Source: Candidatus Krumholzibacteriia bacterium (lineage in GTDB: Bacteria; Krumholzibacteriota; Krumholzibacteriia; LZORAL124-64-63). Taken from it: a stretch of 64,000 nucleotides of DNA. Position 1 is the first letter of the stretch; each line of letters begins with the position of its first letter. Of the stretch, positions 36,507 through 60,814 are shown one piece after another. The translations under genes were made by a program, and so were the position numbers. The stretch is taken from positions 2,084 through 66,083 of the forward strand of contig JANTGJ010000001.1 in assembly GCA_024762975.1 (NCBI GenBank), given 5' to 3'. The notes under the pieces were generated by a model. It was not told the origin of the DNA. It did no database searches and worked only from the letters and a program-made list of their open reading frames with translations.

Positions 36507-36545
36507 GGCCCGGCCCCGCACGGGGGCCGGGCCTTCTTCAACTTC
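36507..36545 (+). terminator. rho-independent terminator downstream of the T9SS-CTD gene
   Basis: GGCCCGGCCCC-gcacg-GGGGCCGGGCC, an 11-bp perfect stem, followed by TTCTTCAACTTC. Confidence 0.6.
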
Positions 36546-36841: not shown

Positions 36842-37597
36842 ATGTCGCGGATTGTGTTCCTAGCCGTTCTGGTCGGCGCCGTTTTCTGTTCGGCCGATCT
36901 GATCGCCCAGACCGAAGAGACAACCCAGGAAGTCGATATGCGTATCGACACCGCCGCCGGAACGCAGCAGCAGCTGAACGACTGGTCCACCGAGCGGGAG
37001 CAGGTGGAGGCGCGGTACCGCACCGCCAAGCTGAACATCTCCCAACTGAAGGATCGCCTGGGCGTGGCCGAGAGCCGTGCCGATCTGCTCCGCTCCCAGG
37101 TGGAGGAACTGGAGCGGCGCTTGGGCGAGGCCGGCCGCCTCAAGGCCACCATCAACGACACCATGCAGGTGGTCCTGAGCCGCTTGGAGAAGGCCGTGGA
37201 GGCGGATCAGCCCTTCCTGGTGTCCGAGCGCCGCCAACGCCTAGACGACCTGCGCACCCTGCTGGTCGATGACGAGGTCATCGAGGCCGAGAAGCTGCGC
37301 CGCCTCCTGGAGGCCCTGCTGGTGGAGGCCAAGTACGGCGAGACGGTCGAGGTGACCCAGGAGAGCATTGACCTGAACGGGCAGGAGGTATTCGTGGATC
37401 TGCTGCGCGTGGGTCGCATGAGCCTCTTCTTCATGACGCCCGACAAGACTCTGGCCGGTTCCTACGATCCGGCCCGGCAGAAGTATGTGGAACTCACCAG
37501 TGACAATTACCGCCGGATCGACAAGGCCATGGAGATGGCCTCGAACATGCGTCCCGTGGAACTCCTCAGCCTGCCCCTCGGAAGGATCGAACGATGA
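36842..37597 (+). CDS. DUF3450 family periplasmic protein (TtpB-like first gene of TonB2-type systems)
   Basis: GAGGAGG RBS, a signal peptide, then a coiled-coil-rich region ('LRSQVEELERRLGEAGRLKA') and a C-terminal 'DLNGQEVFVDLLRVGRMSLFFMTPD' segment typical of DUF3450. The stop overlaps the next gene (ATGA). Confidence 0.6.
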   Translation: MSRIVFLAVLVGAVFCSADLIAQTEETTQEVDMRIDTAAGTQQQLNDWSTEREQVEARYRTAKLNISQLKDRLGVAESRADLLRSQVEELERRLGEAGRLKATINDTMQVVLSRLEKAVEADQPFLVSERRQRLDDLRTLLVDDEVIEAEKLRRLLEALLVEAKYGETVEVTQESIDLNGQEVFVDLLRVGRMSLFFMTPDKTLAGSYDPARQKYVELTSDNYRRIDKAMEMASNMRPVELLSLPLGRIER

Positions 37598-39018
37598 AGC
37601 GCCTGATCCTGACGGCGGCGATGGCCCTGCTGGTCCTTGGTGCTGGGGAAAGCCCGGCCGAGGACCTCCGCTCCGCCTACAAGAAGGCCCATGCCGCCCG
37701 CGAGGCGGAGGAGCTGAAGGCCTTGGAGATCGAGGCGCGCATCCTCAATGATCGCGACGCCCTGACGGCCGAGATGGAGCGCCTCGAGGCGGAGATGTCC
37801 GCCCTGGAGACCCGTCTGAGCAATACCGAGAAGTACATCGAGATCACCGAGGGCCGCCGCGCCGACCTGCAGGATAAGTGGGAGGGCAGCGAGCTGGACT
37901 TCCAGGAGATCAGCGGCAACGTCCGCATGGCCGCCCGCGACCTGGAGTCCATGCTGACCCAGTCCCAGCTGACGGCCTTCGATCCCGAGCGCGTGGACCT
38001 GGCCGGCCGCCTGCTGGACAGCGGTTACTTCCCCGACATCGACGACATCAGCGCCATGGCCGGCGTCATCCTGGGCGAGATCAAACAGTCCGGGCAGGTG
38101 GCCATCCGCGACGCGGAGATCATCAACCGCAGCGGCGAGAAGGAGACGGTGCCCGTGCTGGTGCTGGGCCGCTTTACCGCCGCTTACGACGCCCCCGGGG
38201 AGAACGGATTCCTGGATTATTCGACGGACGGACGCAGGTTCGTGGCCCTTTCCAAGCTGCCCACCGGCGGCCTGGGCAAGGACCTCGACGCCTACCTTGC
38301 TGGCCAGACCGATCAGGTGCCCGTGGATTTGTCGCTCGGCAATGCACTACGGCAGATCGTCTATAAAACGGATCTGATGGAGCAGATCCGGGCCGGCGGT
38401 CCGCTCGTCTACCCCATCGCCCTGCTGGCGGTGGTGGCCCTGCTGATCATCCTCTACAAGCTCATCGACCTGAGCATGGTCGGCCAGGGTACCGAGAAGT
38501 TCATGGACCGCATCCAGGATCACGTCTTCCGCGGTGAGTGGAACCGCGTGGAGGCGGTATTGGAGAAGGAGAACGGCCGCTCACCCATCACCAAGGTAAT
38601 CCGCGAGGGCATGAAGGTCCGTGACGAGGATCGCGAAACCCAGGAGAGCGTGCTGCAGGAGGCCATCCTGGCGCAGCTGCCCCGGGTGGAGCGCGGCCTG
38701 TCCATCCTGGCGGTGCTGGGCGCCGTGGCCCCGCTGCTGGGCCTGCTGGGCACAGTGACGGGCATGATCGAGACTTTCCGCGTCATCACCCTGTACGGCA
38801 CGGGCGATCCGAAGCTCATGTCCGGCGGCATCTCCGAGGCCCTGGTGACGACGGAGCTGGGGCTGGCCGTGGCTATCCCCATCATGCTGATGCACACGCT
38901 GTTGAACCGGCGCAGCGATAGCATCGTCGGCAAGATGGAGGAGAAGGCCGTGCAGCTGACCAACATCCTGCAGATCCATCGGCGGGATCCCCTGAAGGTC
39001 ATGGAGGCGAGGGGTTAG
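37594..39018 (+). CDS. TtpC-like large MotA/TolQ/ExbB family proton-channel protein with long periplasmic N-terminal domain
   Basis: About 300 aa of coiled-coil periplasmic domain, then a 3-TM ExbB-like C-terminus ('LGLLGTVTGMIETF', 'GISEALVTTELGLAVAIP'). Confidence 0.65.
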   Translation: MKRLILTAAMALLVLGAGESPAEDLRSAYKKAHAAREAEELKALEIEARILNDRDALTAEMERLEAEMSALETRLSNTEKYIEITEGRRADLQDKWEGSELDFQEISGNVRMAARDLESMLTQSQLTAFDPERVDLAGRLLDSGYFPDIDDISAMAGVILGEIKQSGQVAIRDAEIINRSGEKETVPVLVLGRFTAAYDAPGENGFLDYSTDGRRFVALSKLPTGGLGKDLDAYLAGQTDQVPVDLSLGNALRQIVYKTDLMEQIRAGGPLVYPIALLAVVALLIILYKLIDLSMVGQGTEKFMDRIQDHVFRGEWNRVEAVLEKENGRSPITKVIREGMKVRDEDRETQESVLQEAILAQLPRVERGLSILAVLGAVAPLLGLLGTVTGMIETFRVITLYGTGDPKLMSGGISEALVTTELGLAVAIPIMLMHTLLNRRSDSIVGKMEEKAVQLTNILQIHRRDPLKVMEARG

Positions 39019-39022
39019 AGCC

Positions 39023-39658
39023 ATGTTAGATCATGCAATGAACAGTCTTCTGGACGCGGTCGAGTATCTGCAGCAGGGCGGCTGGGTGATGATCCCCCTG
39101 GCGATCACCTCAGTCATCATGTGGATGATGATTCTCGAGCGGATCCTGGTCTACGCCCGCTTCGGCCGCAGTGAGCTCGATTCCTCCACGGTCCTGGCCA
39201 TCGCGCGCAACGAGAACAAGGGCGTGCGCCGGCAGGGGCTGCGAGGTGAGCTTCTGCGCCGCTTCATGATCGCCCGCTTTGGCGATCCAGAGGTGGACCG
39301 GCACGTCCTGCGCCAGCAACAGGAGGTGATGCGCCGCCATCTGCGGCAGCGCCTGGCGATGATCGCGGTGCTGGCCTCGGTGGCTCCCCTGCTGGGCCTG
39401 CTGGGCACCGTATTGGGCATGATCGAGAGCTTCGAGGTCATCTCCATCTTCGGCACCGGCAACGCCAAGGCTCTGGCCGGCGGCATCTCCATGGCCATGG
39501 TGACGACCCAGGCGGGCCTGGTGATCGCGGTGCCTGGCCTGTTCATCAGTGGCTGGCTGATGCGCAAGGCCCGCACCCTGGAACATAGTCTGGACGAGTT
39601 CGTGCAACAGATCGATCGCCCCCTGCGGGGCCTGGAAAAGGGGATGGCAGCCTCATGA
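39023..39658 (+). CDS. exbB: MotA/TolQ/ExbB proton channel protein
   Basis: 'LGLLGTVLGMIESF' and 'GISMAMVTTQAGLVIAVP' are ExbB/TolQ hallmarks. Confidence 0.8.
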   Translation: MLDHAMNSLLDAVEYLQQGGWVMIPLAITSVIMWMMILERILVYARFGRSELDSSTVLAIARNENKGVRRQGLRGELLRRFMIARFGDPEVDRHVLRQQQEVMRRHLRQRLAMIAVLASVAPLLGLLGTVLGMIESFEVISIFGTGNAKALAGGISMAMVTTQAGLVIAVPGLFISGWLMRKARTLEHSLDEFVQQIDRPLRGLEKGMAAS

Positions 39659-40074
39659 TCAACGTACGCAGAACCATTCGCGGCAGCGGCGACAACGTCG
39701 ACATCAATATGGGGCCCCTGATCGACATGGTGTTTCTGCTACTCATATTTTTCGTGGTGACGACCAGCTTCGTGAAGGAGACGGGCATCGACGTCTCGCG
39801 CAGCAACGCCGCCAGCGCCGAACCCAAGGTGAGCGCCAACATCATGGTCGGCGTCAACGAGCAGGGCGAAGTCTACTTCGAGGGCAAGCAGATCGACGTG
39901 CGCAGTGTGCGCGGCTTGGTCGAGCGCGCCCTCGCCGACGACCCCACGAGTGGCGTCATCGTCGTGGCCGATAAGGCCAGCGAGACGGGCTCCGTGGTCA
40001 AGGTCATGGATCAGGCCCGTCTGGCGGGTGCCGCCGAGGTGAGCCTCGCGGCCCAGAAGGCGACGGCGGAATGA
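39655..40074 (+). CDS. exbD: ExbD/TolR biopolymer transport protein
   Basis: 'INMGPLIDMVFLLLIFFVVT' TM segment and the ExbD periplasmic domain. ATGA overlaps on both sides. Confidence 0.8.
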   Translation: MINVRRTIRGSGDNVDINMGPLIDMVFLLLIFFVVTTSFVKETGIDVSRSNAASAEPKVSANIMVGVNEQGEVYFEGKQIDVRSVRGLVERALADDPTSGVIVVADKASETGSVVKVMDQARLAGAAEVSLAAQKATAE

Positions 40075-40703
40075 GCACCTTGGTCCTCAAGCGCGCGGCC
40101 GGCGGTAGCCTGGTGGTGGGCGGAGCGCTGCTCGCCAACCTGAGCCTGCTGATCTTGCTGGGCATCCTGACGAACCAGCACCACGCGCCGCCGTTGGTGC
40201 CCGACGCCGTGGGCGTCAGCCTGGTCAACCTGGCTCCGCCCGAACCGCCCCCGGTGGAGGATGTGCGTGAGACGCCCCCGCCCCCGCCGCAGCAGAAGCC
40301 CGATTTCGCCCCCGACCTGGTCCAGCCCAGCCTGGGCGACCTGGGCGGCGGCGGTCTCAGCATCGATCTGGGCATCGACCACGTCGAGACCGGCAACGAC
40401 ACCCAGGACTTCATCTTCGACTCGATCGATCTGGATCAGCCTCCGCGTGTCCTCGTGCAGATTCCGCCTGACTACCCCTTCAAGGCCCGCGAGCAGGGCA
40501 TCGAGGGCTACGTGGCGGTCAAGCTGCTGGTGCGTGAGGACGGCAGCGTGGGCAGTATCAACATCCTGAAGGCCAAACCGGCGGGCCTGTTCGAGGATGC
40601 CGTCCGGCGTGCCATTCCCGGCTGGCAGTTCCAGCCCGGCAAAATGGCGGGCGAATCGGTGACCTCCTGGATCGTCACGACGATCCGTTTCGACCTCAAC
40701 TAG
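40071..40703 (+). CDS. tonB: TonB family energy transducer
   Basis: N-terminal TM, a Pro-rich spacer 'APPEPPPVEDVRETPPPPPQQKP', and a C-terminal TonB domain ('YPFKAREQGIEGYVAVKLLVREDGSVGSINILKAKP'). Confidence 0.8.
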   Translation: MSTLVLKRAAGGSLVVGGALLANLSLLILLGILTNQHHAPPLVPDAVGVSLVNLAPPEPPPVEDVRETPPPPPQQKPDFAPDLVQPSLGDLGGGGLSIDLGIDHVETGNDTQDFIFDSIDLDQPPRVLVQIPPDYPFKAREQGIEGYVAVKLLVREDGSVGSINILKAKPAGLFEDAVRRAIPGWQFQPGKMAGESVTSWIVTTIRFDLN

Positions 40704-40729
40704 CCAGCAATCCGATCGGAGATCGCATC

Positions 40730-41980
40730 ATGAGCCTGAAGACCCTCATGCTTCTCGTCCTGGCTGTCCTGACCCTGGCGCCCCTGCCGGCGGGCGCCGT
40801 GGGCAGCGACAACAGTCGTTCCACCACCCTGCCCGAGATCGGCGTCGGCTCGATCCGCATGGACCCCTACGCCCTGGACCTGGTGCCCCGCCGCCTGCGC
40901 AAGCCCGTCTTCCGCGCCACCGTCCTGGTCAAGCGCGGCGAGGACGAAGCCGCCGTTCGAATCCTCTCTGAGCAGCTGGAGAACGAGCCGGACCTGGACC
41001 ACTACCTGCTGCGCTACCACTTGGGCCGCAGCCTGGCCCGCCTCGAGCGCCACGCCGAGGCCGCCGAGCAGTACCGCGCCGCCGTCACCCTGAACCCGGA
41101 ACTGGACCGGGCCTGGATCGGCTTGGGCGACAGCGCCTACAAGATCAAGGACTACGCCACCGCCGCCGAGGGTTTCGAGCAGGGCTTCCACACATCGCCC
41201 GAGCGCCCGATCTCCGTGCTCTACAGCGCCGCCGCCGCGGCCCTGCAGGACGGCGACGGTGCCCACAGCCTGCAACTCTTCCTGGAGCTGGAGACGGGCA
41301 AGTGGGGCACTATGAAGCCCGAATGGTACCGGGGCCTGGCCGCCGCTGCGCTGAAGGCGGAGGACCCCGAAGCTGCGAAGCCGGGTCTGGAAAGGATGCT
41401 GAGCCGCTATCCCGATGACCCGGTTTCCTGGCACCTCTGGTACCAGTTCAACGTGGGCACCAAGGACTACCGCGAGGCGGCCATCGCCCTGACTGTCACG
41501 GGCTACCTGCGCGATCTGACGGAAAGGGAACACGATCAGCTGGGGGACCTGTTCAACATGCTGGGTACCCCCGCCCTCAGCCTGGACCAGTACCGCGGTG
41601 CCCTTGGTGAGCAGCCGGCTGCCCACGGCTACGAGAAGCTGGTCAGCGCCGCTCTGGCCGCCCACGACACCGACACCGCCCTCGCGACCATCGACGAGGC
41701 CCTCGCCTACGAGAAGACCGCCCGCCTGTACAGCCTGCAGGGGGACGTCTTCTACCGCTTGCGCGACTACGAATCCGCCCGGGAAGCCTTCGCCCGCGTC
41801 ATGGAGCTGGATCCGGAATACTCGCGCGCCTACCTGATGGTGGGTTACTGCAGCTTGGAGCTGGGGAATAAGGAGGAGGCCCTGGACAACCTGGGCCGCG
41901 TGAGCGATGACCCGCACCACGGGGACATTGCCCAGCTCCTGATCCAGCGGGCCATGCTGCTGGAGGAGAGCGGAAGCTGA
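40730..41980 (+). CDS. secreted TPR-repeat protein (TtpD-like terminal gene of the TonB2-type cluster)
   Basis: Signal peptide followed by multiple TPR-like repeats across the protein ('AEQYRAAVTLNPELDRAWIGLGDSAYKIKDYATAAEGF'). Confidence 0.6.
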   Translation: MSLKTLMLLVLAVLTLAPLPAGAVGSDNSRSTTLPEIGVGSIRMDPYALDLVPRRLRKPVFRATVLVKRGEDEAAVRILSEQLENEPDLDHYLLRYHLGRSLARLERHAEAAEQYRAAVTLNPELDRAWIGLGDSAYKIKDYATAAEGFEQGFHTSPERPISVLYSAAAAALQDGDGAHSLQLFLELETGKWGTMKPEWYRGLAAAALKAEDPEAAKPGLERMLSRYPDDPVSWHLWYQFNVGTKDYREAAIALTVTGYLRDLTEREHDQLGDLFNMLGTPALSLDQYRGALGEQPAAHGYEKLVSAALAAHDTDTALATIDEALAYEKTARLYSLQGDVFYRLRDYESAREAFARVMELDPEYSRAYLMVGYCSLELGNKEEALDNLGRVSDDPHHGDIAQLLIQRAMLLEESGS

Positions 41981-42580: not shown

Positions 42581-44101
42581 ATGTTTCGAATCTTTGTGTT
42601 CGCGGGGATCATCGTCTGCCTGCTGGCGGCCGGTGCCCATGCCGGTCTCGCCAAGTTTCAACTGCCAGCATTCAGTCCAACCCAAGTGATGAACGCTCCA
42701 GCCGTGTCCGTCGGACCGGACGGTTGGACGATGGTCGCCTACAGCACCCACGATGTGGTGCTGATGAATTTCATCGAAGTGCAGGCCATTTTGACCCGTG
42801 AGCCGGGCTGGCCGGCCGTTCTGCCGGATCCGGTAACGTTGGGCCCGGGCTACGCGCCGTACATCTGCTGGACCCGCGAAGGCTGGATCTGTGCTTTCTC
42901 CAGCGCTGGCATGCTGCGGATCGCCGAATCGGATGTGAATGGCGTGTGGGATACCGACGGCGTTGAACTCATCCCCATCGGCGGCGGGATCCTGAAAATG
43001 GATCTGTGGGGTGCCGCATCGGATGCCGCCGGACCGGACGCCTTCCTGGTGATCGAACGATACCTGGACCCGCCGGATGGTGGCTTCGAGACGCTGTACA
43101 TGTCCCGTACCACCGCCGGCTGGAGCGAGCCCGAGCTGATCGTTCCCGAATCCTCGCGGCTGCCGTATCCGCAGGTGACCTACACCTGGGGTCCTGCCGG
43201 CCCGATGCCGCAGATCTATTATCTGGACTGGATCGAGGACCAGACCGAATTGATGACGACCTATCTCGATCCGATGAGCGGCTGGTCCACGCCCGCCGCG
43301 GTACCGGGCGATGGCGTTTCCTCGCCCACGGAATTCACCGGCGACTTCGAGGTGATTCGCCATGGGACGGGTCAAACGGAGATCCTCGGCCTGGGGCCGA
43401 TGCCGACCTGTCCCTGCCGCGACATGCTGTTCCAGGAGTACGATAACGGCTGGCAGCCGACGGTTGTCGTGACCGCTCCGGTCGATCGGTACAACACGGC
43501 CTTCCTGCCGAATCTGGTGTGCGACGACCTGGGAAAAAGCTATGCGTTCTGGGTTCAGGAAGGCGCGGACCCTGCACTGGTACCGCACTCGCGGACCTTG
43601 CAGTACCGCATCCGCAGCGGTGGCGAGTGGGAGAACTGGGACACGCTCTTCGACGACCAGAGGCAGTACGCACCGGGCGTGGTCAGCGATATCGATGTTT
43701 CCCCGATCGGGGAACCGGTCATGGCCTGGACCCGCACCGATACGCTGGAGGGCGTGCCGCAGCCCGAACGGATCTGGATCGCGCAGATCAGTGGTCCTGC
43801 AACCGTGCCCGACGAGCGTACGCACGAAGCCGCATCCCTGGCAGCCTGGCCGAATCCCTTCAATCCGCGCGTGAGCCTGACGGTCGAGCCCTCGGTGGCG
43901 GGTCCGGTCCGGTTGGATATCCATGACGCGAAAGGCCGGCGAGTACGAAACCTGCTGGATGTCGCCGCCTTGTCAGAAGTTCAGACCGTGAGCTGGGACG
44001 GCACCGATGCGGCCGGGCGGGAACTGCCCAGCGGCATCTACTTCGCCCGGGCAGTCACGGCGCAGGGGGCGGTGGTCAAGAAACTGGTGCTGGCACGCTG
44101 A
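42581..44101 (+). CDS. secreted hypothetical protein with T9SS-type C-terminal sorting domain
   Basis: RBS AAAGGGGGA and signal peptide 'IFVFAGIIVCLLAAGAHAG'. The C-terminus 'AAWPNPFNPRVSLTVEPSVAGPVRLDIHDAKGRRVRNLL…LPSGIYFARAVTAQGAVVKKLVLAR' is the same CTD class as the protein at 34724-36433. Confidence 0.6.
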   Translation: MFRIFVFAGIIVCLLAAGAHAGLAKFQLPAFSPTQVMNAPAVSVGPDGWTMVAYSTHDVVLMNFIEVQAILTREPGWPAVLPDPVTLGPGYAPYICWTREGWICAFSSAGMLRIAESDVNGVWDTDGVELIPIGGGILKMDLWGAASDAAGPDAFLVIERYLDPPDGGFETLYMSRTTAGWSEPELIVPESSRLPYPQVTYTWGPAGPMPQIYYLDWIEDQTELMTTYLDPMSGWSTPAAVPGDGVSSPTEFTGDFEVIRHGTGQTEILGLGPMPTCPCRDMLFQEYDNGWQPTVVVTAPVDRYNTAFLPNLVCDDLGKSYAFWVQEGADPALVPHSRTLQYRIRSGGEWENWDTLFDDQRQYAPGVVSDIDVSPIGEPVMAWTRTDTLEGVPQPERIWIAQISGPATVPDERTHEAASLAAWPNPFNPRVSLTVEPSVAGPVRLDIHDAKGRRVRNLLDVAALSEVQTVSWDGTDAAGRELPSGIYFARAVTAQGAVVKKLVLAR

Positions 44102-44117: not shown

Positions 44118-44160
44118 GCGAGACCCGTCGCTCCGGCGGGTCTCGTGATATTCCCTGCTG
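44118..44160 (+). terminator. putative rho-independent terminator
   Basis: CGAGACCCG-tcgctccgg-CGGGTCTCG hairpin followed by TGATATTCCCTGCTGTTTCGG. Confidence 0.4.
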
Positions 44161-44226
44161 TTTCGGATCCGGGACCTGGATTACCTTGGGCGCGATGGAT
44201 GTCCTGCAGCCCGGTCCGGAGACTCG

Positions 44227-47200
44227 ATGACGCAACCCGCAACAAACCCTGCCATCCCCGATATCACCGTACGCGGTGCCCATGCCCACAATCTGCAGGG
44301 CGTGGACGTCCAGATCCCACATCACCGACTGGTCGTGGTGACGGGAGTATCGGGCAGCGGAAAATCATCGCTCGCGTTCGACACGATCTGTCGCGAAGGG
44401 CAGCGGCGCTATCTCGAATCGTTTTCCAGCCGGGCCCGTCAGTTGCTGGGAAAGCTCGGGCAGTGCGAGGCCGAGAGCCTGGATCACCTCGGTGCGGCGA
44501 TCGCCTTGGATCAGAAGACCTCGGTTCGAAATCCTCGTTCCACCGTGGGTACGATCAGTGAGCTGAATGCTCATCTGCGGCTGTTGCTCGCGCGCCGGGG
44601 CGAAACGGCGACCGGTGATCATTTGTCGCGCGGCGAACTCTCGTTCAATGGACGTGGTGCCTGCGAGGCCTGCCGGGGTCTGGGCGTGCAAGATGCGATC
44701 GACCCCTCGAAACTGATTGCCGATGACCGAAAATCGCTACGCGAAGGCGCTCTGGTCATCACCACCGACAGCGGCTACGTGATGTACTCGCAAGTAACGA
44801 TGGACGTGCTGAACCAGGTTTGTCAGGCCCACGATTTCCACGTCGACATCCCCTGGCGTGAGATGACCGACGAGCAGAAGCACATCGTGCTGTACGGCAG
44901 TGATCGTATCGAGATTCCCTTCGGCAAGCATCCGCTCGAATCGCGCATGAAATGGAGCGGGATCACGGCGCGGCCACGCCAGATGGGGCACTATGGCGGG
45001 ATTGTTCCGGTCATGGAGGGCATCCTGCGGCGCGACAGGAACCGGAATATCCTGCGATTCGCGCGCACCGGGCCCTGCGAGGCCTGCGGCGGGACGCGAC
45101 TGAATGAGCGGGCGCGGTCCGTGCGCTGGGCCGGCCGGAATCTGGCCGAGATCTCGGCGCTTGCGATCGGGGAGCTGGACGCCTTTTTCCGGGGCCTCGT
45201 TGCCACCCACGTCGCGGACGAAGCCTTCCGCGCCATTGCGAAAGAGATTCTGCGGCGCACCGAGTTGCTGATCGACCTGGGCCTGGAGTACTTGACGCTG
45301 GACCGTGACGCGCCTTCGCTTTCGGGCGGTGAGGCGCAGCGAATTCGGCTGGCCGTGATCGCCGGTTCGCGACTGCGGGGCATCACCTACGTGCTGGACG
45401 AGCCGTCGATCGGGCTGCATCCGCGCGACCAGGCGCGACTGCTGGGCGTGCTGCGGCGACTGGTGGATCAGGGCAACTCGGTCCTCGTTGTCGAGCACGA
45501 CGAGGCCACGATGCGCGCGGCGGATTGGATCGTGGACATCGGGCCGGGCGCGGGGGCCGAGGGTGGCCGGGTGTTGTACTCGGGACCGCCCGAAGGGCTG
45601 ACCACATCCGGCGCGGAGAGTTCGCCGACACGCGCACTGTTGCAGGGAACCCTCGAATTTCCCGTGCCTTCGCCGCGACGTGCGACCGGAACGTTCACCG
45701 TTCGGGATGCGAAGCTGCACAACCTGCGCGGACTGGATGTCGAGTTCCGGCTCGAGTCCTTCCACGTCATCAGCGGAGTGTCCGGCGCGGGCAAGAGTTC
45801 GTTGCTGACCGAGCTGTGCACTCAGGTCGAACGCGCGCGCGAAGCCGGCGACCCCGCCGTTCGCAAACTGATCACCATCGACCAGGCGCCGATCGGCCGT
45901 ACGCCGCGCTCGAACGCGGCGACCTATACCGGGCTTTTCGACCCGCTGCGCACGCTCTACGCCAGCCAGCCGCGTGCGAAAGAGTTGGGCCTGGGCAAGG
46001 GCGATTTTTCGTTCAACAACCGGGGCGGCCGTTGTGTCGAGTGCGAGGGCGCGGGGGTGCAGCGGCTGGGCATGCACTTCCTGGGCGACGTCGAAATTCC
46101 GTGTTCGGCCTGCAGGGGGCGGCGCTTCGGTCCGAGGATTCTGGAAGTGAAGTACCGCGATCGGGACATCGCCGAGGTCCTGGATCTGTCGATTGCTGAA
46201 GCGGCGGAGTTCCTGTCCGACCAGAAGAAGCTCGCGCGCACCCTGGATGTGCTGGTCGAACTGGGATTGGGCTACCTCAGCCTGGGCCAGCCTTCGACGA
46301 CGCTCTCGGGCGGCGAGGCGCAGCGCGTGAAACTGGCCTCGGAGTTGGCCCGACCGCAGGTGGCCGGTACGTGGTATGTGCTGGACGAGCCGACCACCGG
46401 ATTGCATGGAGCGGACACGGCCGTGCTCCTGGGCGCGCTGGACCGACTGGTAGCTGCCGGCGGAACGGTCGTAGTCAGCGAGCACGACTCCGCTTTCCTG
46501 CGATTCGCGGATCGTGTGATCGATCTGGGACCCGATAGCGGGGCGAACGGCGGCGCCGTAGTCTTTGCCGGCACCCCCGCCGATCTGATGAAGTGCTCCT
46601 CCTCACTGACCGGCCGGGCACTGGCCGCAGAGGAGGTCGGCCCACCTCCGAGCCGCGACCCGGTCGAGGTGGTTTCGCCCAGTCAGCCCATCGAGTTGCT
46701 GGGCGTTCGGACCCACAACCTGCAGGACATCGATGTTTCGATTCCCGTCGGCCGGATCACGGTCATCACCGGGGTCTCGGGCAGCGGCAAATCCTCGTTG
46801 GCGATGGCCACGTTGGCGGCCGAGGGCCGGGCCCGGTACGCGGAGAACTTCTCGACCTGGGTGCGTCAGCAGTTGACCGGGTCGGCGCGCGCGGATCTGT
46901 CTTCCTCGCGCGGCCTGCTGCCTGCGGTCGCCGTCAGCCAATCCAGTGGACCGTCGAATCCGCGCTCGACGGTGGCGACCATGGCCGAGATTCATCCCCT
47001 GTTGCGGCTGCTCTACTCGCGGCTGGGTGAAGGCTTCGCCGGGGCCGAGCGTCCTACGGCGGGATTCTTCTCGTTCAATGAATTGCGCGGTGCCTGCCCA
47101 ACGTGTCGCGGCCTGGGTACGATCACGGCCTGTGATCCCCGGAAGCTGGTCACCGATCCGAGTCTGTCGCTGCTCAACGGCGCTTTGGACGGCCACAAGA

Positions 47201-49020
47201 CCGGCCGATTCTACGGCGAACGCGATGGGCAGTACGTGGCCACGTTGCGGCAGGTGGGCCAAGAGCGCGGCCTCGACTTCGAGGTGCCGTGGAGTGAGTT
47301 GAACGACGAGTCACGCCACGTCGCGATGTATGGCACAGGCGATCGCACCTATGACGTCGTCTGGCGTTTCAGGCGCGGCAAGAGCGAGGGCGAGCACGAG
47401 TTCCATGGCGCCTGGCCCGGTTTCTGTGGTCTGGTCGATGAAGAGTACGATCGCAAGCATGCCGATCGCCGCGGCCGCGAAATGCTGGGCGTGATGAGCG
47501 AGTCGGCCTGCTCCGCCTGCGCAGGCCGTCGTCTCGGACCGGAGGCCCTGCAGGTGAAAGTCGCCGGGCAATCCATCGCTGACGTGTGCGCGCTGGAGAT
47601 CGGGGCGGCGCACAGATTCTTCGACGATCCGGCCGGTCCGCTGGCGACCGTTCCGCACCTGCGCGACGAGGTGCTGCGCAAGCTGGATACACTGCGCCGG
47701 GTCGGACTGGGATACTTGTCCCTGGACCGTGCCACGGCCACGCTGTCGGGCGGGGAGAATCGCCGCCTGCGGTTGGCACGACAGATCGGATCGCGGCTGC
47801 GCGATCTGGTGATCGTGCTGGATGAACCGACGCTGGGTCTGCACCCGCGCGATACGGAATTGTTGTGGGGAGTACTCGAGGAGCTGCGCGACCAGGGCAA
47901 CACGCTGGTGTTGGTCGAGCACGATCCCGAGGTGATCCGTCGAGCCGATCATGTGATCGATCTGGGACCGGGCGCCGGGCGGCTGGGCGGACGCATCGTG
48001 GCCACCGGTACGCCGGCCGAGATCGAGGCGAATGAAGACTCGGTGACAGGACATTGGCTGGGCGAGTCGATCACACCACACCCCGGCACTGCCGGCACCG
48101 GCCATGAGAAACTGGCCGTGCGCGGCGCCTGCGTGAACAACCTGCGTGACCTCGACGCCGAGTTCCTGGTGGGTGGTTTGAACGCGGTCGTCGGCGTATC
48201 GGGCAGCGGAAAATCGAGTCTGGTTTTTGGTGCTCTGGGCGCCACGGCCGAAGCGGGCCGGCCGACCGGCTGTCGCCAGGTGGAAGGCCTGGATCGCTTC
48301 GATGAGGTCGTTGCGATTCAGCCGGGGCCGTCGCTCGCGGGCGGCGCCGGGAACCCGGCCACGGCTTCAGGGATCGTCGCGCCCGTGCGCAAACTGCTGG
48401 CCACGACCCGGGAGGCGCAGCAGGCCGGATTCGCCGTCCGCCACTTCGGCACCGCCAGCAAAGGAGGCCGGTGCGAGAATTGCGCAGGTTCCGGGCGCAT
48501 CGAAGTGGCCCTGGATTTCCTGAGCGATGTCCACTCGGCCTGTCCCCAGTGCGGCGGCGAAGGTTTTCGCGACGAAGTGCTGGCCTGCCGTTGGAGAGGT
48601 TCCAACATCGCCGATATCCTGCGAATGACGATCGGTGAGGCGCTCGAGTTTTTCGACGACCAGAAGAAGATCACGGCCGGTCTGCAACCGCTGGCCGACG
48701 TGGGCCTCGACTACCTGACCCTGGGTCAGCCGACCCGCACTCTCTCGGGCGGGGAACGCCAGCGGCTGAATCTGGCCTGCCGCCTGCTGCCGGGACGGCG
48801 TTCCGGCGGCGGTGACCTGCTGCTGTGCGATGAGCCGACCGCCGGGTTGCACATGGCGGACATCGAGCATTTGGGCAAGTTGATGTGCCGCCTGGCCGCC
48901 GCGGGCCATACCTTGATCTTCACGGAGCACAATGCCCAGCTGATCGCGATGGCCGACCGCGTGATCGAACTGGGACCGGGCGCTGGCCAGGCCGGCGGGC
49001 GGGTGATTCACACGGTGTAG
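44227..49020 (+). CDS. tandem-fused UvrA-like ABC ATPase (two class-II-type UvrA units, four nucleotide-binding domains, in one 1597-aa polypeptide)
   Basis: There are four Walker A sites, one of them 'GVSGAGKSS' and the others 'GVSGSGKSS', and four ABC signatures: LSGGEAQRIRLA, LSGGEAQRVKLA, LSGGENRRLRLA and LSGGERQRLNLA. Each half carries paired Zn-module cysteines (CEACRGLGV and CEACGGTRL, then CVECEGAGV and CSACRGRRF, then CPTCRGLGT and CSACAGRRL, then CENCAGSGR and CPQCGGEGF). Each half is about 800 aa, so it probably lacks the UvrB-binding insertion of canonical UvrA. Confidence 0.8.
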   Translation: MTQPATNPAIPDITVRGAHAHNLQGVDVQIPHHRLVVVTGVSGSGKSSLAFDTICREGQRRYLESFSSRARQLLGKLGQCEAESLDHLGAAIALDQKTSVRNPRSTVGTISELNAHLRLLLARRGETATGDHLSRGELSFNGRGACEACRGLGVQDAIDPSKLIADDRKSLREGALVITTDSGYVMYSQVTMDVLNQVCQAHDFHVDIPWREMTDEQKHIVLYGSDRIEIPFGKHPLESRMKWSGITARPRQMGHYGGIVPVMEGILRRDRNRNILRFARTGPCEACGGTRLNERARSVRWAGRNLAEISALAIGELDAFFRGLVATHVADEAFRAIAKEILRRTELLIDLGLEYLTLDRDAPSLSGGEAQRIRLAVIAGSRLRGITYVLDEPSIGLHPRDQARLLGVLRRLVDQGNSVLVVEHDEATMRAADWIVDIGPGAGAEGGRVLYSGPPEGLTTSGAESSPTRALLQGTLEFPVPSPRRATGTFTVRDAKLHNLRGLDVEFRLESFHVISGVSGAGKSSLLTELCTQVERAREAGDPAVRKLITIDQAPIGRTPRSNAATYTGLFDPLRTLYASQPRAKELGLGKGDFSFNNRGGRCVECEGAGVQRLGMHFLGDVEIPCSACRGRRFGPRILEVKYRDRDIAEVLDLSIAEAAEFLSDQKKLARTLDVLVELGLGYLSLGQPSTTLSGGEAQRVKLASELARPQVAGTWYVLDEPTTGLHGADTAVLLGALDRLVAAGGTVVVSEHDSAFLRFADRVIDLGPDSGANGGAVVFAGTPADLMKCSSSLTGRALAAEEVGPPPSRDPVEVVSPSQPIELLGVRTHNLQDIDVSIPVGRITVITGVSGSGKSSLAMATLAAEGRARYAENFSTWVRQQLTGSARADLSSSRGLLPAVAVSQSSGPSNPRSTVATMAEIHPLLRLLYSRLGEGFAGAERPTAGFFSFNELRGACPTCRGLGTITACDPRKLVTDPSLSLLNGALDGHKTGRFYGERDGQYVATLRQVGQERGLDFEVPWSELNDESRHVAMYGTGDRTYDVVWRFRRGKSEGEHEFHGAWPGFCGLVDEEYDRKHADRRGREMLGVMSESACSACAGRRLGPEALQVKVAGQSIADVCALEIGAAHRFFDDPAGPLATVPHLRDEVLRKLDTLRRVGLGYLSLDRATATLSGGENRRLRLARQIGSRLRDLVIVLDEPTLGLHPRDTELLWGVLEELRDQGNTLVLVEHDPEVIRRADHVIDLGPGAGRLGGRIVATGTPAEIEANEDSVTGHWLGESITPHPGTAGTGHEKLAVRGACVNNLRDLDAEFLVGGLNAVVGVSGSGKSSLVFGALGATAEAGRPTGCRQVEGLDRFDEVVAIQPGPSLAGGAGNPATASGIVAPVRKLLATTREAQQAGFAVRHFGTASKGGRCENCAGSGRIEVALDFLSDVHSACPQCGGEGFRDEVLACRWRGSNIADILRMTIGEALEFFDDQKKITAGLQPLADVGLDYLTLGQPTRTLSGGERQRLNLACRLLPGRRSGGGDLLLCDEPTAGLHMADIEHLGKLMCRLAAAGHTLIFTEHNAQLIAMADRVIELGPGAGQAGGRVIHTV

Positions 49021-49040
49021 GGGGAACGGGTGCCGGGCCG

Positions 49041-49409
49041 TTAGGCCTCGGCCGGCACCGGAGTCGGCTTCCCGTTCCTGTCGATGTTCACGTATTTGAC
49101 CTCGGCCCGGGTCACGGAGACCCGCTCGCCTCCGCTGCGGCGCCGGGCCTCGACGTCGACCCGAACCCGGATCGAGGTCCGGCCCACCTCGATGACTTCT
49201 GCATAGAAGCTGACCAGGTCGCCCACGTGGACGGGTTCCTCGAAAACGATCCGATCCATCGCCACGGTCACCACGCGTTGACAACCCCGTTCGATGGCGG
49301 CCACGGCGCCGGCCTGATCGATGTGGCTGAGGATCACACCGCCGAAGATGGTGCCGTGGTGATTCGTATCGCGGGGCATCATCAGTACCCGGATGGCGGC
49401 GTCGCGCAT
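49041..49409 (-). CDS. acyl-CoA thioesterase, hotdog fold (YciA-like)
   Basis: 'MPRDTNHHGTIFGGVILSHID' matches the YciA/BFIT-type hotdog N-terminus. Start at the internal ATG. Confidence 0.65.
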   Translation of the reverse strand: MRDAAIRVLMMPRDTNHHGTIFGGVILSHIDQAGAVAAIERGCQRVVTVAMDRIVFEEPVHVGDLVSFYAEVIEVGRTSIRVRVDVEARRRSGGERVSVTRAEVKYVNIDRNGKPTPVPAEA

Positions 49410-49516
49410 GTTCGGCTCCCGTTCAGAGGATCGATTCGGTTCCCCAAGGATCCAGCATAGTACAACGGCCCCCGCCGAGGCGAGGGCCGTTGTCGACAAT
49501 CACGGTAGTACGAGGA

Positions 49517-51754: not shown

Positions 51755-52381
51755 ATGATGCGTAGCTTTCTGATGTGTGCCCTGTTCTTCGTTTGCCTGA
51801 TCACCGCCCAAAACGCCGTGGCGCAGTTCCGGACGGTAGACCCTCCTTCCTGCATCGTGACTACCCGTGCGACTGAGCCGGTTTCACTCATCATGTGTCC
51901 GGACGCGGACGGTACCCGCCTTGACCGGGCACAGGTTTTTGGCGGCGGTACGGTGGACGCCATGATCGTGATCCAGTTGCTCGATGAGGAAGGGATCGCG
52001 ACGCCGTACATCCCGCGGTTGGATCTGTGGCTCGGTGGTCCGGGGCTCGATCTGTGCGACGCGACAAATCTACCCGACTACGAACCCGGTGTCTCCGGGA
52101 TCACGGCTTTTTACTGGCCCTTGCGCGGGGGGGGCTGTATGCCCGAGCCCGGTCTGCGGGTCTATTATAACGGCGACCCCCTGGGCGACGGTGTGGTCCC
52201 TCACATCCGCGTAAATAGCCCCGATATGAATGCGGACGGTATCGTCAATCTGGCCGACGTGTGGCGCTTCGCCGCTGCTTTCGCTGGCTACGACTACGCC
52301 GCTGATTTCGTCTGGGACGGAGTCTTGAACCTGGCCGATGTCGGCGAGTTCGCAAAACATCTCGGGCACTCCTGTCCTTGA
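51755..52381 (+). CDS. small secreted protein with C-terminal dockerin-like double Ca-binding repeat
   Basis: AGGAAG RBS and signal peptide 'MMRSFLMCALFFVCLITAQNAVA'. The C-terminus has 'DMNADGIVNLADVWRFAAAF' and 'DFVWDGVLNLADVGEFAKHL', matching the dockerin type-I pair pattern (D-x-N-x-DG-x-VN-x-xD). Confidence 0.5.
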   Translation: MMRSFLMCALFFVCLITAQNAVAQFRTVDPPSCIVTTRATEPVSLIMCPDADGTRLDRAQVFGGGTVDAMIVIQLLDEEGIATPYIPRLDLWLGGPGLDLCDATNLPDYEPGVSGITAFYWPLRGGGCMPEPGLRVYYNGDPLGDGVVPHIRVNSPDMNADGIVNLADVWRFAAAFAGYDYAADFVWDGVLNLADVGEFAKHLGHSCP

Positions 52382-52476
52382 TCCGGAATTCGAATTCACT
52401 TGCGGCGGCGCCCGGCTTGGATCATCCTCCGCCGAGTTGTAACCAGCCCCCGACTTCCGCTCAGGAGGAAGATTCC

Positions 52477-53241
52477 GTGAATATACTGACAGTCACGACC
52501 CGCACACTGGTCGCCCTGGCCCTCATCGCGATGGCCCTGCCGGTCGCAGCCATGGATGTCGATGAATTGATCGCCAAGAACGTCGAAGCCCAGGGCGGCA
52601 AGGACAAGATCAAGGGTATCGAGACCCTTACCATCGAAGGTAACTTCATGACGCAAGGCATGGAGATCCCGTTCACGATGAAGCAGAAGCGTCCTGACAA
52701 GATGAAGATCGAGGCCTCATTCATGGGCATGACCATGATCCAGTGCTTTGCCGACGGTGCCGGTTGGTCGATCAATCCGATGATGGGTTCGACCGACCCG
52801 CAGCCGATGGCCGAAGTCGAGTCCAAGAGCTTCGCGATCCAGGCCAACATCGACGGCCCGCTGCTCGGCTACCAGGAAAAGGGTTGGACGGCGACCTACG
52901 AAGGTGAGGAAGACGTTGAAGAGACACCTGCCTACAAGCTGACCCTCGATACCCACGACGGGATCGTGATCGACTTCTTCATCGACAAGGAATATTTCCT
53001 GACGATCAAGCAGGCCACGCGCATCACCATCGATACGAACGAGGTCGAATCCGAGACCTATCTGAGCGATTTCCAGGAGGTGGAGGGGATTGTCATGCCC
53101 TTCGCCGTAGAGACTCGAATGGGCGGCGTAGTCGCCAACACTGTGATGATGACCTCGGTGAAGCTGAACCAGGAAGTCGACGACGCCGAATTCGAGATGC
53201 CCGAGCCGACCCCGGCTCCGGCGCCTACCGCCGGAGAGTAG
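52477..53241 (+). CDS. LolA-like outer-membrane lipoprotein-sorting family protein (periplasmic)
   Basis: GTG start 5 nt after AGGAGGA and signal peptide 'LVALALIAMALPVAA'. 'FTMKQKRPDKMKIEASFMGMTM' resembles the LolA_like family core. Acidic Pro-rich tail. Confidence 0.45.
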   Translation: MNILTVTTRTLVALALIAMALPVAAMDVDELIAKNVEAQGGKDKIKGIETLTIEGNFMTQGMEIPFTMKQKRPDKMKIEASFMGMTMIQCFADGAGWSINPMMGSTDPQPMAEVESKSFAIQANIDGPLLGYQEKGWTATYEGEEDVEETPAYKLTLDTHDGIVIDFFIDKEYFLTIKQATRITIDTNEVESETYLSDFQEVEGIVMPFAVETRMGGVVANTVMMTSVKLNQEVDDAEFEMPEPTPAPAPTAGE

Positions 53242-53347: not shown

Positions 53348-55816
53348 ATGAACGAACTGATCCAGGAACAGGACTGGCCCGAGGACTGGCGCGAAGCGGC
53401 GGAGAAACACCGCTGCCTGCACTGCGAGAACGATCTGGGCCCCTTCTGGCAGCGCGCCGAGGGCCCGTTCTGCTGCCGCGGCTGCCGCGGCGTCTACCAC
53501 ATGATCCACGAGGCCGACCTGGCCCGGTACTACGACCTGAAGTCCGGTGCCCACGCCCCGGCCGCTCACCTACGCCCCGACAGCCACGACTGGCTGGACC
53601 GGATGCTGGCCGAGACGCCACCCGATGCCCGCGGCATCCTGAATCTCTCCCTGGATATCCAGGGCGTGCACTGCGCGGCCTGCGTATGGCTGATCGAGGA
53701 GCTCTTCAATCGCTTGCCGGGCGCGATCCAGTTGCGCATCAATCCCACCCTGGGCACGGTCGAGCTGACCTGGGACCCGGCCGCCGGCGATCTGAAATTC
53801 TTTCTCGGTGAGGTCGAGAAATTCGGCTATCGCCTCGGACCCTCACGCAAACGGAGTCGTGGCAAATCGCGCGGGCTGCTGATGCGCATGGCCGTTTCGA
53901 TCTCGATGGCCATGAACGTGATGATGTTCAGCCTCAGCTACTACTTCGGCCTCGCGCCGGTGGACGGGCGGTTGTACCAGTTCATGGGCTGGCTCAGTCT
54001 GGCTCTGGCCACGGTCTCACTGATTGCCGGTGGCGGCGTTTTTTTCCAGGCGGCCATCGCGGGACTGCGGCGGCGGATTGCCCATCTGGATCTGCCCATT
54101 TCGTTGGGAATGATTCTGGCCTATCTGGGCTCGGTCTATGGTTTTCTGACCGGTGGGCCGGAGGCGGCCTATTTCGACAGTCTGACCATTTTTATCGCAC
54201 TGATGCTGGTGGGACGTTGGGCTCAGGAGCACATCCTCGAGCGCAATCGCAACGCCCTGCTGGATTCGGCCGGTGCGGAGAACCTGACGACGAAACGATT
54301 GGATCAGGACGGAACGGTTGCCCCCGTAGCGGCGACCGACATTCTGCAGGGGGACGAATTGTGGATCGCGCCCGGCGATCTGTTGCCGGTGGACGGAATC
54401 CTGATGCGCCGTTCCACCGAAGTTTCGCTGGACTGGATCAGTGGCGAATCCGACCAGGTCGCTTTCCAGCCCGGTGAGGTGATTCCGGCCGGCGCCTTCA
54501 ACGCCTCGGAGCACGGTTTTTCGGCCACGGCCAGCCAGGATTTCGCCGATTCCCGTTTGCAGGATCTGTTGCGCTCGACGGTGACGGCGGACGAGGATTT
54601 CCGTCCCCGTTGGTGGCACCGGATCAGCAGTTGGTATGTATCGTTGGTTCTGATCTCGGCGACCGCTGGATTTTTGGGATGGTACCGCATCGATCATTTT
54701 ACCGCGTTGGAAGTGGCGATATCCATTCTGGTCGTGACCTGCCCCTGCGCCCTGGGGCTGGCCACGCCCCTGGCCGAGGAGCTGATTCACTTCGCGCTGC
54801 GGCGATCGGGTGTCTTTCTGCGCAAACAGACCTTTCTGGAAAAGGCGCTGGACGTGCGCAAGATCCTGCTGGACAAGACCGGCACCCTGACGCTGGGGCA
54901 ATTGGCCCTGCATCCGGACTCAGCCTCCGTTTTGAGTGGCCTGCCCCCGGTCGAACGCGGGGTACTGCAACACATGTCCGCCCGCTCGAACCATCCGGCC
55001 AGTCTCTGCCTGTTTGCGGCGATGCGCCGGGATGACCGCCCGGCGGAGGCAATTCGGTCCGCCGCGGGAGAAAATCTGCGGGAAATTCCAGGGGCAGGTC
55101 TCGAATTCGAGTATGAGGGCGCACGGTGGCGGTTGGGGAAACCCGATTTTGCCGAAATGCGCGAAAACGCGCCGGGTGGGCCCGATGACGAGGTTGTGAC
55201 AACCTTGCCGAGCACGGGATCTACTGTTTTTAGTCGCAATGGTGAGGTTTTAGCTTGTTTCGTCCTGAGCGAGGAATTCAAATCCGATGCCGCGTCCGAG
55301 ATCGAATTCTTGAAATCAGAGGGTTTTTCTCTATTTTTGCTCAGCGGTGACAGCCAGGAAAAGGTCGCTGCGGCCGCCGCCGCGCTGGGCGTGGCTCCCG
55401 AGCGGGCTTTCGGGGGGCTGACCCCCGAGCAGAAGGCGCAGCGCGTCCGGGATCTGGATGAGCGAGATACCCTGATGGTCGGGGACGGGTTGAATGACAG
55501 CCCGAGCTTCGAGGCCGCACTCTGTGCCGCCACTCCGGCGGTCGACCGCCCGGTTCTGCCGGGAAAGGCGGACTTTTACTTCCTGGGCGACGGTATCGCG
55601 GCGATTCGCCGTTCGTTGTTGGCCGCCCGCCAGTTGCGTCGGGTGGTACGCTTCAATTTGATGGTGGCCGTGGGGTACAATGTCCTCGCCGTAGGACTGT
55701 GTCTGGGCGCGTTGGTCACCCCGGTGGTTGCAGCCATCCTGATGCCGATCAGTTCGGTTGCGGTCGTCTCGCTTACCGCAGTAAGGCTTTCGGGAAGGAG
55801 GCTGACATGGATGTGA
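53348..55816 (+). CDS. ccoI: copper-translocating P1B-type ATPase of the cbb3-oxidase assembly type (CcoI/FixI)
   Basis: 'CPC' in the TM segment ('VVTCPCALGLA'), 'DKTGTLT' phosphorylation site, 'GDGLND' hinge, and an N-terminal Cys-rich metal-binding region 'HCENDLGPFW…FCCRGCRGVY'. It lies directly upstream of ccoS and ccoNO. Confidence 0.8.
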   Translation: MNELIQEQDWPEDWREAAEKHRCLHCENDLGPFWQRAEGPFCCRGCRGVYHMIHEADLARYYDLKSGAHAPAAHLRPDSHDWLDRMLAETPPDARGILNLSLDIQGVHCAACVWLIEELFNRLPGAIQLRINPTLGTVELTWDPAAGDLKFFLGEVEKFGYRLGPSRKRSRGKSRGLLMRMAVSISMAMNVMMFSLSYYFGLAPVDGRLYQFMGWLSLALATVSLIAGGGVFFQAAIAGLRRRIAHLDLPISLGMILAYLGSVYGFLTGGPEAAYFDSLTIFIALMLVGRWAQEHILERNRNALLDSAGAENLTTKRLDQDGTVAPVAATDILQGDELWIAPGDLLPVDGILMRRSTEVSLDWISGESDQVAFQPGEVIPAGAFNASEHGFSATASQDFADSRLQDLLRSTVTADEDFRPRWWHRISSWYVSLVLISATAGFLGWYRIDHFTALEVAISILVVTCPCALGLATPLAEELIHFALRRSGVFLRKQTFLEKALDVRKILLDKTGTLTLGQLALHPDSASVLSGLPPVERGVLQHMSARSNHPASLCLFAAMRRDDRPAEAIRSAAGENLREIPGAGLEFEYEGARWRLGKPDFAEMRENAPGGPDDEVVTTLPSTGSTVFSRNGEVLACFVLSEEFKSDAASEIEFLKSEGFSLFLLSGDSQEKVAAAAAALGVAPERAFGGLTPEQKAQRVRDLDERDTLMVGDGLNDSPSFEAALCAATPAVDRPVLPGKADFYFLGDGIAAIRRSLLAARQLRRVVRFNLMVAVGYNVLAVGLCLGALVTPVVAAILMPISSVAVVSLTAVRLSGRRLTWM

Positions 55817-56058: not shown

Positions 56059-56136
56059 CGGCCTCCGTGCGACCAGGATCGAACCCGGGTACAGCGGGTT
56101 CGCGGGATCGAACAATGAAGGAGGCGGGTGCTCCCC

Positions 56137-58572: not shown

Positions 58573-58575
58573 CCA

Positions 58576-60811: not shown

Positions 60812-60814
60812 TTC

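Follow-up and report, generated by a model that had tools for sequence, protein, structure and literature searches.

A 64-kb stretch of the Candidatus Krumholzibacteriia contig JANTGJ010000001.1 (64,000 nucleotides, referred to below as the window) encodes a 1597-residue ABC ATPase at 44227..49020, in which two UvrA units are joined in tandem. We propose, with a probability of about 0.6, that this protein acts as an asymmetric pseudo-dimer of UvrA units within one chain and detects DNA distortion independently of UvrB, and that it belongs to an old and widespread family of double UvrAs in which both units are of class II type (II+II; combinations that include class I units are written I+I, I+II and II+I).

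Two UvrA units in one polypeptide

The gene is a single open reading frame (ORF) of 1597 codons that starts with ATG and has no internal stops. Its GC content at third codon positions (GC3) is 0.79, which matches that of other genes in the window (63% GC overall). Four Walker A motifs of the form GVSG[SA]GKS (residues 40–47, 517–524, 849–856 and 1323–1330), four LSGGE signatures (at residues 365, 693, 1173 and 1506) and four DEP Walker B motifs are present, and eight CxxC pairs make up four Zn modules (C146/149 with C284/287, C603/606 with C626/629, C957/960 with C1095/1098, and C1416/1419 with C1439/1442). NCBIfam UvrA models match the protein at E=0 in four stretches, and the Pfam insertion domain UvrA_DNA-bind (PF17755) matches it twice. 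The features expected of the UvrA superfamily (TIGR00630/NF001503) are all found: Walker A, Walker B, signature and H-loop in each of the four nucleotide-binding domains (NBDs), and an insertion domain plus a C-terminal Zn finger in both units (cysteine quartets 603–629 and 1416–1442). The elements are arranged as follows, with assignments based on hidden Markov models (HMMs), motif reading, alignment and a partial structural model.

44227..49020, forward strand: double UvrA-like ABC ATPase, complete ORF of 1597 residues plus TAG stop; an identical public protein is P0001
44227..46626, forward strand: N-half UvrA unit, residues 1–800, comprising NBD-I with signature domain I and the insertion domain, then NBD-II with Zn finger (HMM, alignment, fold match of modelled residues 1–1200)
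44344..44367, forward strand: Walker A of N-half NBD-I, GVSGSGKS, residues 40–47; G45 and K46 are invariant in 119 sequences
44599..44643, forward strand: N-half connector of 14 residues (125–139) where the UvrB-binding domain is missing; 10–29 residues in 116 of 119 relatives and 149–150 in three (alignment)
44662..45087, forward strand: N-half Zn module C146, C149, C284, C287 around the insertion domain (Pfam UvrA_DNA-bind, 119-member alignment)
45775..45798, forward strand: Walker A of N-half NBD-II, GVSGAGKS, residues 517–524 (motif, alignment)
45880..45912, forward strand: N-half Q-loop II with intact DQAPIGRTPRS, residues 552–562 (alignment)
46033..46113, forward strand: N-half C-terminal Zn finger C603, C606, C626, C629 (motif, alignment)
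46627..46689, forward strand: inter-unit linker, residues ~801–821, AEEVGPPPSRDPVEVVSPSQP, Pro-rich and not conserved in sequence, with a predicted local distance difference test score (pLDDT) of 61–73 (alignment, model)
46690..49017, forward strand: C-half UvrA unit, residues 822–1597, with the domain order of the N-half, more divergent and without the last ~25 residues of a normal unit (HMM, alignment)
46771..46794, forward strand: Walker A of C-half NBD-I, residues 849–856 (motif, alignment)
47026..47070, forward strand: C-half connector of 14 residues (934–948) where the UvrB-binding domain is missing (alignment)
47095..47520, forward strand: C-half Zn module C957, C960, C1095, C1098 around the insertion domain (Pfam, alignment)
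48193..48216, forward strand: Walker A of C-half NBD-II, residues 1323–1330 (motif, alignment)
48319..48351, forward strand: degenerate C-half counterpart of Q-loop II/GRTPRS, IQPGPSLAGGA, with both arginines lost (0 of 30 C-halves basic at either position)
48472..48552, forward strand: C-half C-terminal Zn finger C1416, C1419, C1439, C1442 (motif, alignment)

Pfam UvrA_inter (PF17760), the UvrB-interaction domain, has no match anywhere in the 1597 residues. Alignment to the class I UvrAs of B. stearothermophilus (2R6F) and C. thermocellum (9GXK) covers chain residues ~23–139 and then ~285–952 for the N-half, and 27–139 and then 279–911 for the C-half; both halves thus bypass class I residues ~140–280, which hold the UvrB-binding domain and Zn module 1, by a 14-residue connector. 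Each half aligns to D. radiodurans UvrA2 (2VF7) in one unbroken stretch, end to end. Published definitions of class II UvrAs specify the absence of the first Zn finger and of the UvrB-binding domain (PMC9328131, PMC3167621), and both halves lack the two elements. The arrangement that defines the class I equivalog, with a UvrB-binding domain and Zn module 1 between ATP-binding domain I and signature domain I, is therefore not found here, and neither is the single homodimerizing chain of ~750–870 residues that is typical of class II, since the protein has 1597 residues and two diverged units. What it does have are two class II-type units in tandem within one polypeptide, as expected of a duplicated class II UvrA. 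Such duplicated proteins are reported to have been named 'class III' by Goosen and Moolenaar in 2008 and by Timmins et al. in 2009; neither 'class III UvrA' nor any description of fused or duplicated UvrAs was found in the searchable literature.

The original prediction, read from the letters of this DNA alone, had described four Walker A/ABC-signature pairs and four sets of Zn-module cysteines in one ORF, and had taken them for two class II-like units that both probably lack the UvrB-binding domain. Motif reading and HMM matches agree with the former, and HMMs, Pfam and the alignments with the latter, including a domain-boundary comparison of the kind that it had proposed, made here with the class I UvrAs of B. 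stearothermophilus and C. thermocellum and with D. radiodurans UvrA2.

An old and widespread family of double UvrAs

A homologue search of 5.8 billion proteins, in which relatives were counted as clusters at 90% identity, returned at least 119 clusters of 1550–1790 residues with 47–72% identity to the window protein over ~99% of its length. The named relatives come from Krumholzibacteriota, Acidobacteriota (including the isolate Geothrix oryzisoli), Aminicenantes, Myxococcales and Bacteroidota, and the nearest of them is from a Candidatus Krumholzibacteria metagenome-assembled genome (MAG). A scan of species-representative genomes revealed the same architecture in a Krumholzibacteriia MAG (64% identity), an Acidobacteriota MAG, a complete Bacteroidales chromosome and the isolate Brumimicrobium aurantiacum. 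Across 119 aligned full-length members, the Walker A Gly-Lys, the sixteen Zn cysteines, the signature, Walker B and the H-loop are invariant or at least 90% conserved. The linker is 17% proline, with a median of ~26 residues by the bounds chosen in this analysis and a range of 15–108.

These data leave a negligible chance that two adjacent uvrA-like genes were falsely joined into one long ORF during sequencing or assembly, an explanation for which nothing speaks except the unusual length. Neither reading of the ORF nor the 119-member alignment revealed a frameshift that splits it into two genes, and a continuous ORF with the linker at the same place is found in at least 119 independent clusters as well as in the isolate genomes of G. 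oryzisoli and B. aurantiacum. Conservation of the reading frame across independent assemblies refutes the artefact, and the frameshift or stop between two uvrA-like genes that the original prediction had named as a finding that would refute it is absent. The ~25 residues that usually close a UvrA unit (GTPxxxAxxxxSxTGxxL) are missing from the C-terminus (window 48940–49020); they are likewise missing in the ~22 closest relatives and present in the rest of the family, which makes their absence a clade trait rather than a truncation.

The N- and C-halves are ~40% identical, and each is about equally close to stand-alone UvrAs (39–46% identity to sampled stand-alone class II units, 40–46% to class I UvrA). 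With halves this divergent and relatives spread across phyla, the double protein is neither an artefact nor a recent duplication. In a neighbour-joining tree of the half-units (783 columns, no support values), every N-half falls into one clade and every C-half into a second, and the two clades branch similarly. This topology indicates one old fusion that would then have been inherited as a unit, and the two unit lineages always occur in the same N-to-C order across the family.

To place the C-half more broadly, it was scored against 1.84 billion representatives at 50% identity and the best 150 were examined; nearly all of them are doubles. An HMM-based split into units gave 56 II+II, 39 I+II, 30 I+I and 5 II+I representatives, plus fragments. 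Between 51 and 53 of the 56 II+II representatives fall into the N-type and C-type lineages of the window protein, whose own N unit is nearest to the N-clade and whose C unit is nearest to the C-clade and lacks the GRTPRS arginines discussed below. In most I+I and I+II doubles, canonical UvrAs are the nearest relatives of the units, and these doubles arose by separate duplications. The best 150 representatives showed no clear stand-alone C-type unit; of their short hits only P0265 was checked, and this 807-residue protein was rejected as a stand-alone unit because its gene starts with the first base of its contig and is the remainder of a truncated double. As far as their sequences tell, double UvrAs are a recurrent theme, and the window protein falls into the largest coherent II+II family.

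The other double UvrAs include I+I proteins of ~1900–2000 residues in Poribacteria, Gemmatimonadota and Planctomycetota (P0147, P0152, P0157 and P0171; loci L007–L052, for example L010 and L009), which have UvrB-binding-domain spacing and 11–12 CxxC motifs in both halves. The two halves of the poribacterial double are sisters in the tree, which points to an independent, lineage-specific duplication. Some double representatives are as long as 2166–2343 residues.

The architecture had been presented as unusual, which did not hold: it recurs in at least 119 clusters (90% identity) and at least 51 representatives (50% identity), and the window gene is an ordinary member of a widespread and already annotated family. 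That annotation, 'excinuclease ABC subunit UvrA', raises the question of whether the protein is the cell's working excision-repair UvrA, with DNA handed to UvrB via a non-canonical surface. The public names of the relatives fit this, as does the score of the full protein, which is above the NCBIfam UvrA cut-offs. A further point in its favour comes from a few family members that retain a UvrB-binding domain in the N-half: whereas 116 of the 119 relatives have a connector without the insertion in both halves, P0034, P0063 and P0091, which are nested within the II+II family, carry an insertion of 149–150 residues (Pfam UvrA_inter), confined to the N-half, that may be either an ancestral domain lost elsewhere or a regained one.

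We nevertheless consider a working excision-repair UvrA quite improbable. The equivalog cut-offs are exceeded only by the summed double, since the N-half (844) and C-half (711) both stay below the NF001503 cut-off of 1147 and the C-half (711.7) also stays below the TIGR00630 cut-off of 729.8, so that the C-half fails both models and the N-half fails NF001503. With the threshold reached solely through the sum of two units, 'excinuclease ABC subunit UvrA' is probably a misleading name for the double UvrA family. The only known UvrB-binding domain is missing from both halves, and Ecm16, which lacks that domain, fails to complement a uvrA deletion (PMC9328131). It is reasonable to expect that the double UvrA would not load UvrB in the canonical manner.

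Asymmetry of the halves and proposed function

Comparison with stand-alone class I and class II UvrAs revealed that the two halves have been conserved to different extents. Among 268 columns that are at least 90% conserved in the stand-alone proteins, 207 are retained in N-halves and 170 in C-halves. The clearest losses from the C-half are the two arginines of GRTPRS, a motif that comes after the Q-loop glutamine in NBD-II. At neither position is a basic residue found in any of 30 C-halves, whereas all of 30 N-halves and all of 18 stand-alone UvrAs are basic there; the C-half of the window protein reads IQPGPSLAGGA at this site. The first of these arginines corresponds to R691 of Bca UvrA, and mutant data for Bst/Bca UvrA (K680/R691) are reported to show that mutation of R691 impairs DNA binding. 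In the cryogenic electron microscopy study of C. thermocellum UvrA, both Q-loops adjoin the DNA backbone, and DNA was proposed to position them and thereby activate ATP hydrolysis (PMC12796330). The dimer interface of the same protein is formed by residues R54, Y55, L81 and P83 of ATP-binding domain I (PMC12796330), the equivalents of which are retained in both halves.

Judged by this conservation pattern, the halves are not equivalent, an asymmetry that is new relative to the original prediction and of which no description was found in the searchable literature. The 'covalently fused dimer' it described is correct in that two UvrA units lie in one chain, but these are not two copies of one protein: they are ~40% identical, derive from two old lineages and differ in the loss of the C-half arginines. 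The double UvrA would therefore more closely resemble a hard-wired heterodimer.

An AlphaFold2 model was limited to residues 1–1200 (the N-half, the linker and, from the C-half, the NBD-I region as far as its Walker B) and was based on a 68-sequence alignment. It has a mean pLDDT of 87.5 and a predicted template modelling score (pTM) of 0.82, with lower confidence only at the N-terminus, in one loop and in the linker. Foldseek matched the model to UvrA2 (2VF7) and Ecm16 (7SH1) with template modelling scores of 0.86 and 0.90, respectively (target-normalized), and also to UvrA chains. For a construct with two lobes, a pTM of 0.82 is high enough to suggest that the N-half and the C-half NBD-I pack against each other in a defined way within a single chain.

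Such packing would bear on how the chain might assemble. The units may not fold back at all, and chains could pair N:N and C:C or swap domains to give an assembly of at least eight NBDs. Interface residues that are retained in both halves would fit intermolecular as well as intramolecular pairing, and a linker that varies between 15 and 108 residues is compatible with such an arrangement. The packing of the C-half NBD-I on the N-half that the pTM suggests argues for the intramolecular alternative, and an obligate N:C pair accords with the strict N-then-C order, with the similar branching of the two clades and with the lack of stand-alone C-type units among the best 150 representatives (P0265 being the only short hit checked). 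Intermolecular assembly therefore appears unlikely.

For the asymmetric single-chain UvrA, a mechanism is proposed in which the two units fold back on each other via their ATP-binding-I domains, like the subunits of a UvrA dimer. The resulting intramolecular pseudo-dimer, with all four ATPase sites active, would clamp duplex DNA and spend ATP on probing it for distortion. DNA grip and the coupling of DNA to ATPase activity would be asymmetric between the units, because the C unit has lost conserved arginines beside the distal Q-loop. Since there is no UvrB-binding domain, the protein would take no part in the UvrB-loading step of excision repair; in this it would resemble the stand-alone class II UvrAs D. 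radiodurans UvrA2, Ecm16 and DrrC, and distorted or ligand-bound DNA might be recognized and then cleared or marked. There is precedent in the class II protein Ecm16, which acts without UvrA, UvrB, UvrC or UvrD and needs its own ATPase activity (PMC9328131).

We also entertain, as a rather doubtful extension, the idea that double UvrAs are obligately asymmetric DNA-surveillance motors in which the N unit alone grips DNA canonically and the C unit, present in the sampled sequences only as part of fusions, has taken on another task, such as sensing one strand or recruiting a non-UvrB partner. If so, a UvrB-independent pathway of repair or DNA clearing would be common in Krumholzibacteriota, Acidobacteriota, Bacteroidota and Myxococcota.

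Several points weigh against UvrB-independent distortion sensing by an asymmetric single chain. P0034, P0063, P0091 and a few more I+II representatives retain the N-half UvrB-binding domain, so that the double UvrA family may have had ties to excision repair ancestrally. The half-unit tree is a neighbour-joining tree without support values. In the N-half of the window protein itself, Leu and Asp replace the family consensus at the positions of R720 and R726 of Bst UvrA, and Arg and Leu replace it at those of Y62 and F66 of C. thermocellum (Ct) UvrA; these positions serve DNA binding or lesion probing in class I UvrA, which makes canonical-style DNA probing uncertain even for this half. The mapping of R708, K718, R720 and R726 was based on the spacing of M. 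tuberculosis residues cited in PMC3167621. Finally, no experiments on any II+II double UvrA were found in the searchable literature.

UvrA acts as a dimer with four ATPase sites, and the roles of its proximal and distal sites are hard to separate because any mutation in a homodimer affects both of its sides. In a natural single-chain UvrA, each ATPase site, Zn module and DNA-contact surface could be altered alone, and the family-wide loss of DNA-side arginines from one unit suggests that evolution has already built an asymmetric UvrA. The size and phylogenetic breadth of the double UvrA family make it relevant to the roles of class II and duplicated UvrAs outside antibiotic producers.

Genomic context and comparison with known systems

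The gene is flanked by the following features.

44120..44144, forward strand: hairpin GAGACCCG...CGGGTCTC located 3′ of the stop of the upstream gene (44099–44101), read from the sequence; no T-run follows it and the terminator scan made no call
44218..44221, forward strand: Shine–Dalgarno-like GGAG, 5 nt 5′ of the ATG; a CGGAGA block is conserved upstream of the genes in two compared relatives
49029..49059, no strand assigned: putative terminator-like inverted repeat GGTGCCGG...CCGGCACC lying between the uvrA-like gene and the convergent thioesterase gene, read from the sequence
49041..49499, reverse strand: downstream 4HBT thioesterase (Pfam)

Sigma-70 and terminator scans upstream of the gene gave nothing useful. 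The gene immediately upstream encodes a 532-residue protein with a FlgD_ig domain and is preceded, at window 31500–41980 on the forward strand, by genes for a TonB-dependent receptor and a Por_Secre_tail protein (tailed for the type IX secretion system) and by a DUF3450–ExbB(474 residues)–ExbB–ExbD–TonB–TPR operon. Tails of the type IX kind are in keeping with an organism of the FCB group. On the downstream side, the thioesterase gene and one for an OPT transporter are on the reverse strand, and beyond them come genes for a P-type ATPase and a cbb3 oxidase. Elsewhere the window carries housekeeping genes and genes for heme biosynthesis. The original prediction had placed the gene between insertion sequence (IS) remnants and a thioesterase, with no uvrB or uvrC nearby. 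The thioesterase is there, and a domain search of the ORFs found no uvrB or uvrC in the 64-kb window, but the IS remnants are not: window ORFs of at least 70 residues and the small ORFs flanking the gene contain no transposase or integrase domain, the adjoining small ORFs have no family matches, and the upstream neighbour is the FlgD_ig protein. The neighbouring genes are unrelated to the double uvrA-like gene.

Gene neighbourhoods of three relatives likewise contain no uvrB, uvrC or biosynthetic cluster, and no conserved partner gene was found across these loci, with only partial synteny within Krumholzibacteria. Such varied chromosomal contexts suggest a general genome-maintenance paralogue and not a dedicated antibiotic self-resistance gene. 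The latter role, self-resistance or tolerance to DNA intercalators in the manner of DrrC and Ecm16 and tied to a natural-product cluster, had been a candidate from the start. It draws on the class II-like architecture and on the precedent of Ecm16, which binds drug-loaded DNA and gives ATP-dependent resistance without excision-repair proteins. We consider it very unlikely, given that there are no biosynthetic genes nearby, here or at the three relatives' loci, that the family extends across Krumholzibacteriota, Acidobacteriota, Bacteroidota and Myxococcota in varied contexts, and that the halves are only 39–46% identical to the sampled stand-alone class II units; the gene neighbourhood thus lends the proposed drug tolerance no support.

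An anti-phage role was suggested by PADLOC, which was run on the window protein and two flanking ORFs and reported mad3 (PDLC04135; 448 bits) and mad8 (188 bits) on the former and no match on the latter. A MADS system is an eight-gene mad operon in which mad6–8 are mandatory, and no such operon was recognized at this locus, where a domain search of neighbouring ORFs found no modification or defence-type domains. The role was rejected, as the mad3 and mad8 HMMs were built from HHpred-versus-PDB alignments and there is no defence context. These HMMs likely give false positives on any UvrA, which matters for annotation.

Further observations concern other parts of the window and one relative. A forward-strand region at 53348–63999 encodes a CcoI-like P-type ATPase, a fused CcoN–CcoO cbb3 subunit (814 residues), CcoP, CcoG and a multihaem cytochrome c7-like protein, and a large ORF of >745 residues that runs from 61762 to the window end (forward strand) has no Pfam match. 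The heme biosynthesis genes lie at 14051–25291, mostly on the reverse strand, and encode glutamyl-tRNA reductase, a protoporphyrinogen-oxidase-like flavoprotein, ferrochelatase, a HemN-type radical SAM enzyme, ALA dehydratase and porphobilinogen deaminase. Three ORFs (52378–53241 and 21855–22199 on the forward strand, 10760–11638 on the reverse strand) have a gene-like GC3 of 0.77–0.87 and belong to no Pfam family. In the Krumholzibacteriia relative at locus L082, an AlkZ-like (HTH_42) gene at 15299–16567 lies 2.5 kb downstream of the double uvrA; it is conserved neither in the window nor at the other loci, and its family includes interstrand-crosslink glycosylases.

Among known systems, each half is most like a class II UvrA (UvrA2 2VF7, Ecm16 7SH1, DrrC), with two NBDs, an insertion domain and a C-terminal Zn finger but without the UvrB-binding domain and Zn module 1. 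Class II UvrAs are homodimers of ~750–870-residue chains, whereas here two diverged units that are 40% identical share one chain. The sampled stand-alone class II proteins retain GRTPRS (five Arg and one Lys of six at the first position, six of six Arg at the second), which the C unit does not, and the double UvrA lacks the biosynthetic-cluster context. With class I UvrAs (2R6F, 9GXK and M. tuberculosis 3ZQJ) it shares the ATPase motifs, Zn modules 2 and 3, the insertion domain and the interface residues of ATP-binding domain I, but neither of its halves has the ~140-residue UvrB-binding domain or Zn module 1, and it is a single chain, not a homodimer. The double-length UvrA model NF001885 (PRK00635; 1809 positions), which we take to be chlamydial, gives the window protein 987 bits against a cut-off of 3054. 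The I+I doubles of Poribacteria, Gemmatimonadota and Planctomycetota also have two UvrA units per polypeptide; in contrast to those of the window protein, their units keep the UvrB-binding domains, are closest to canonical UvrAs and arose separately.

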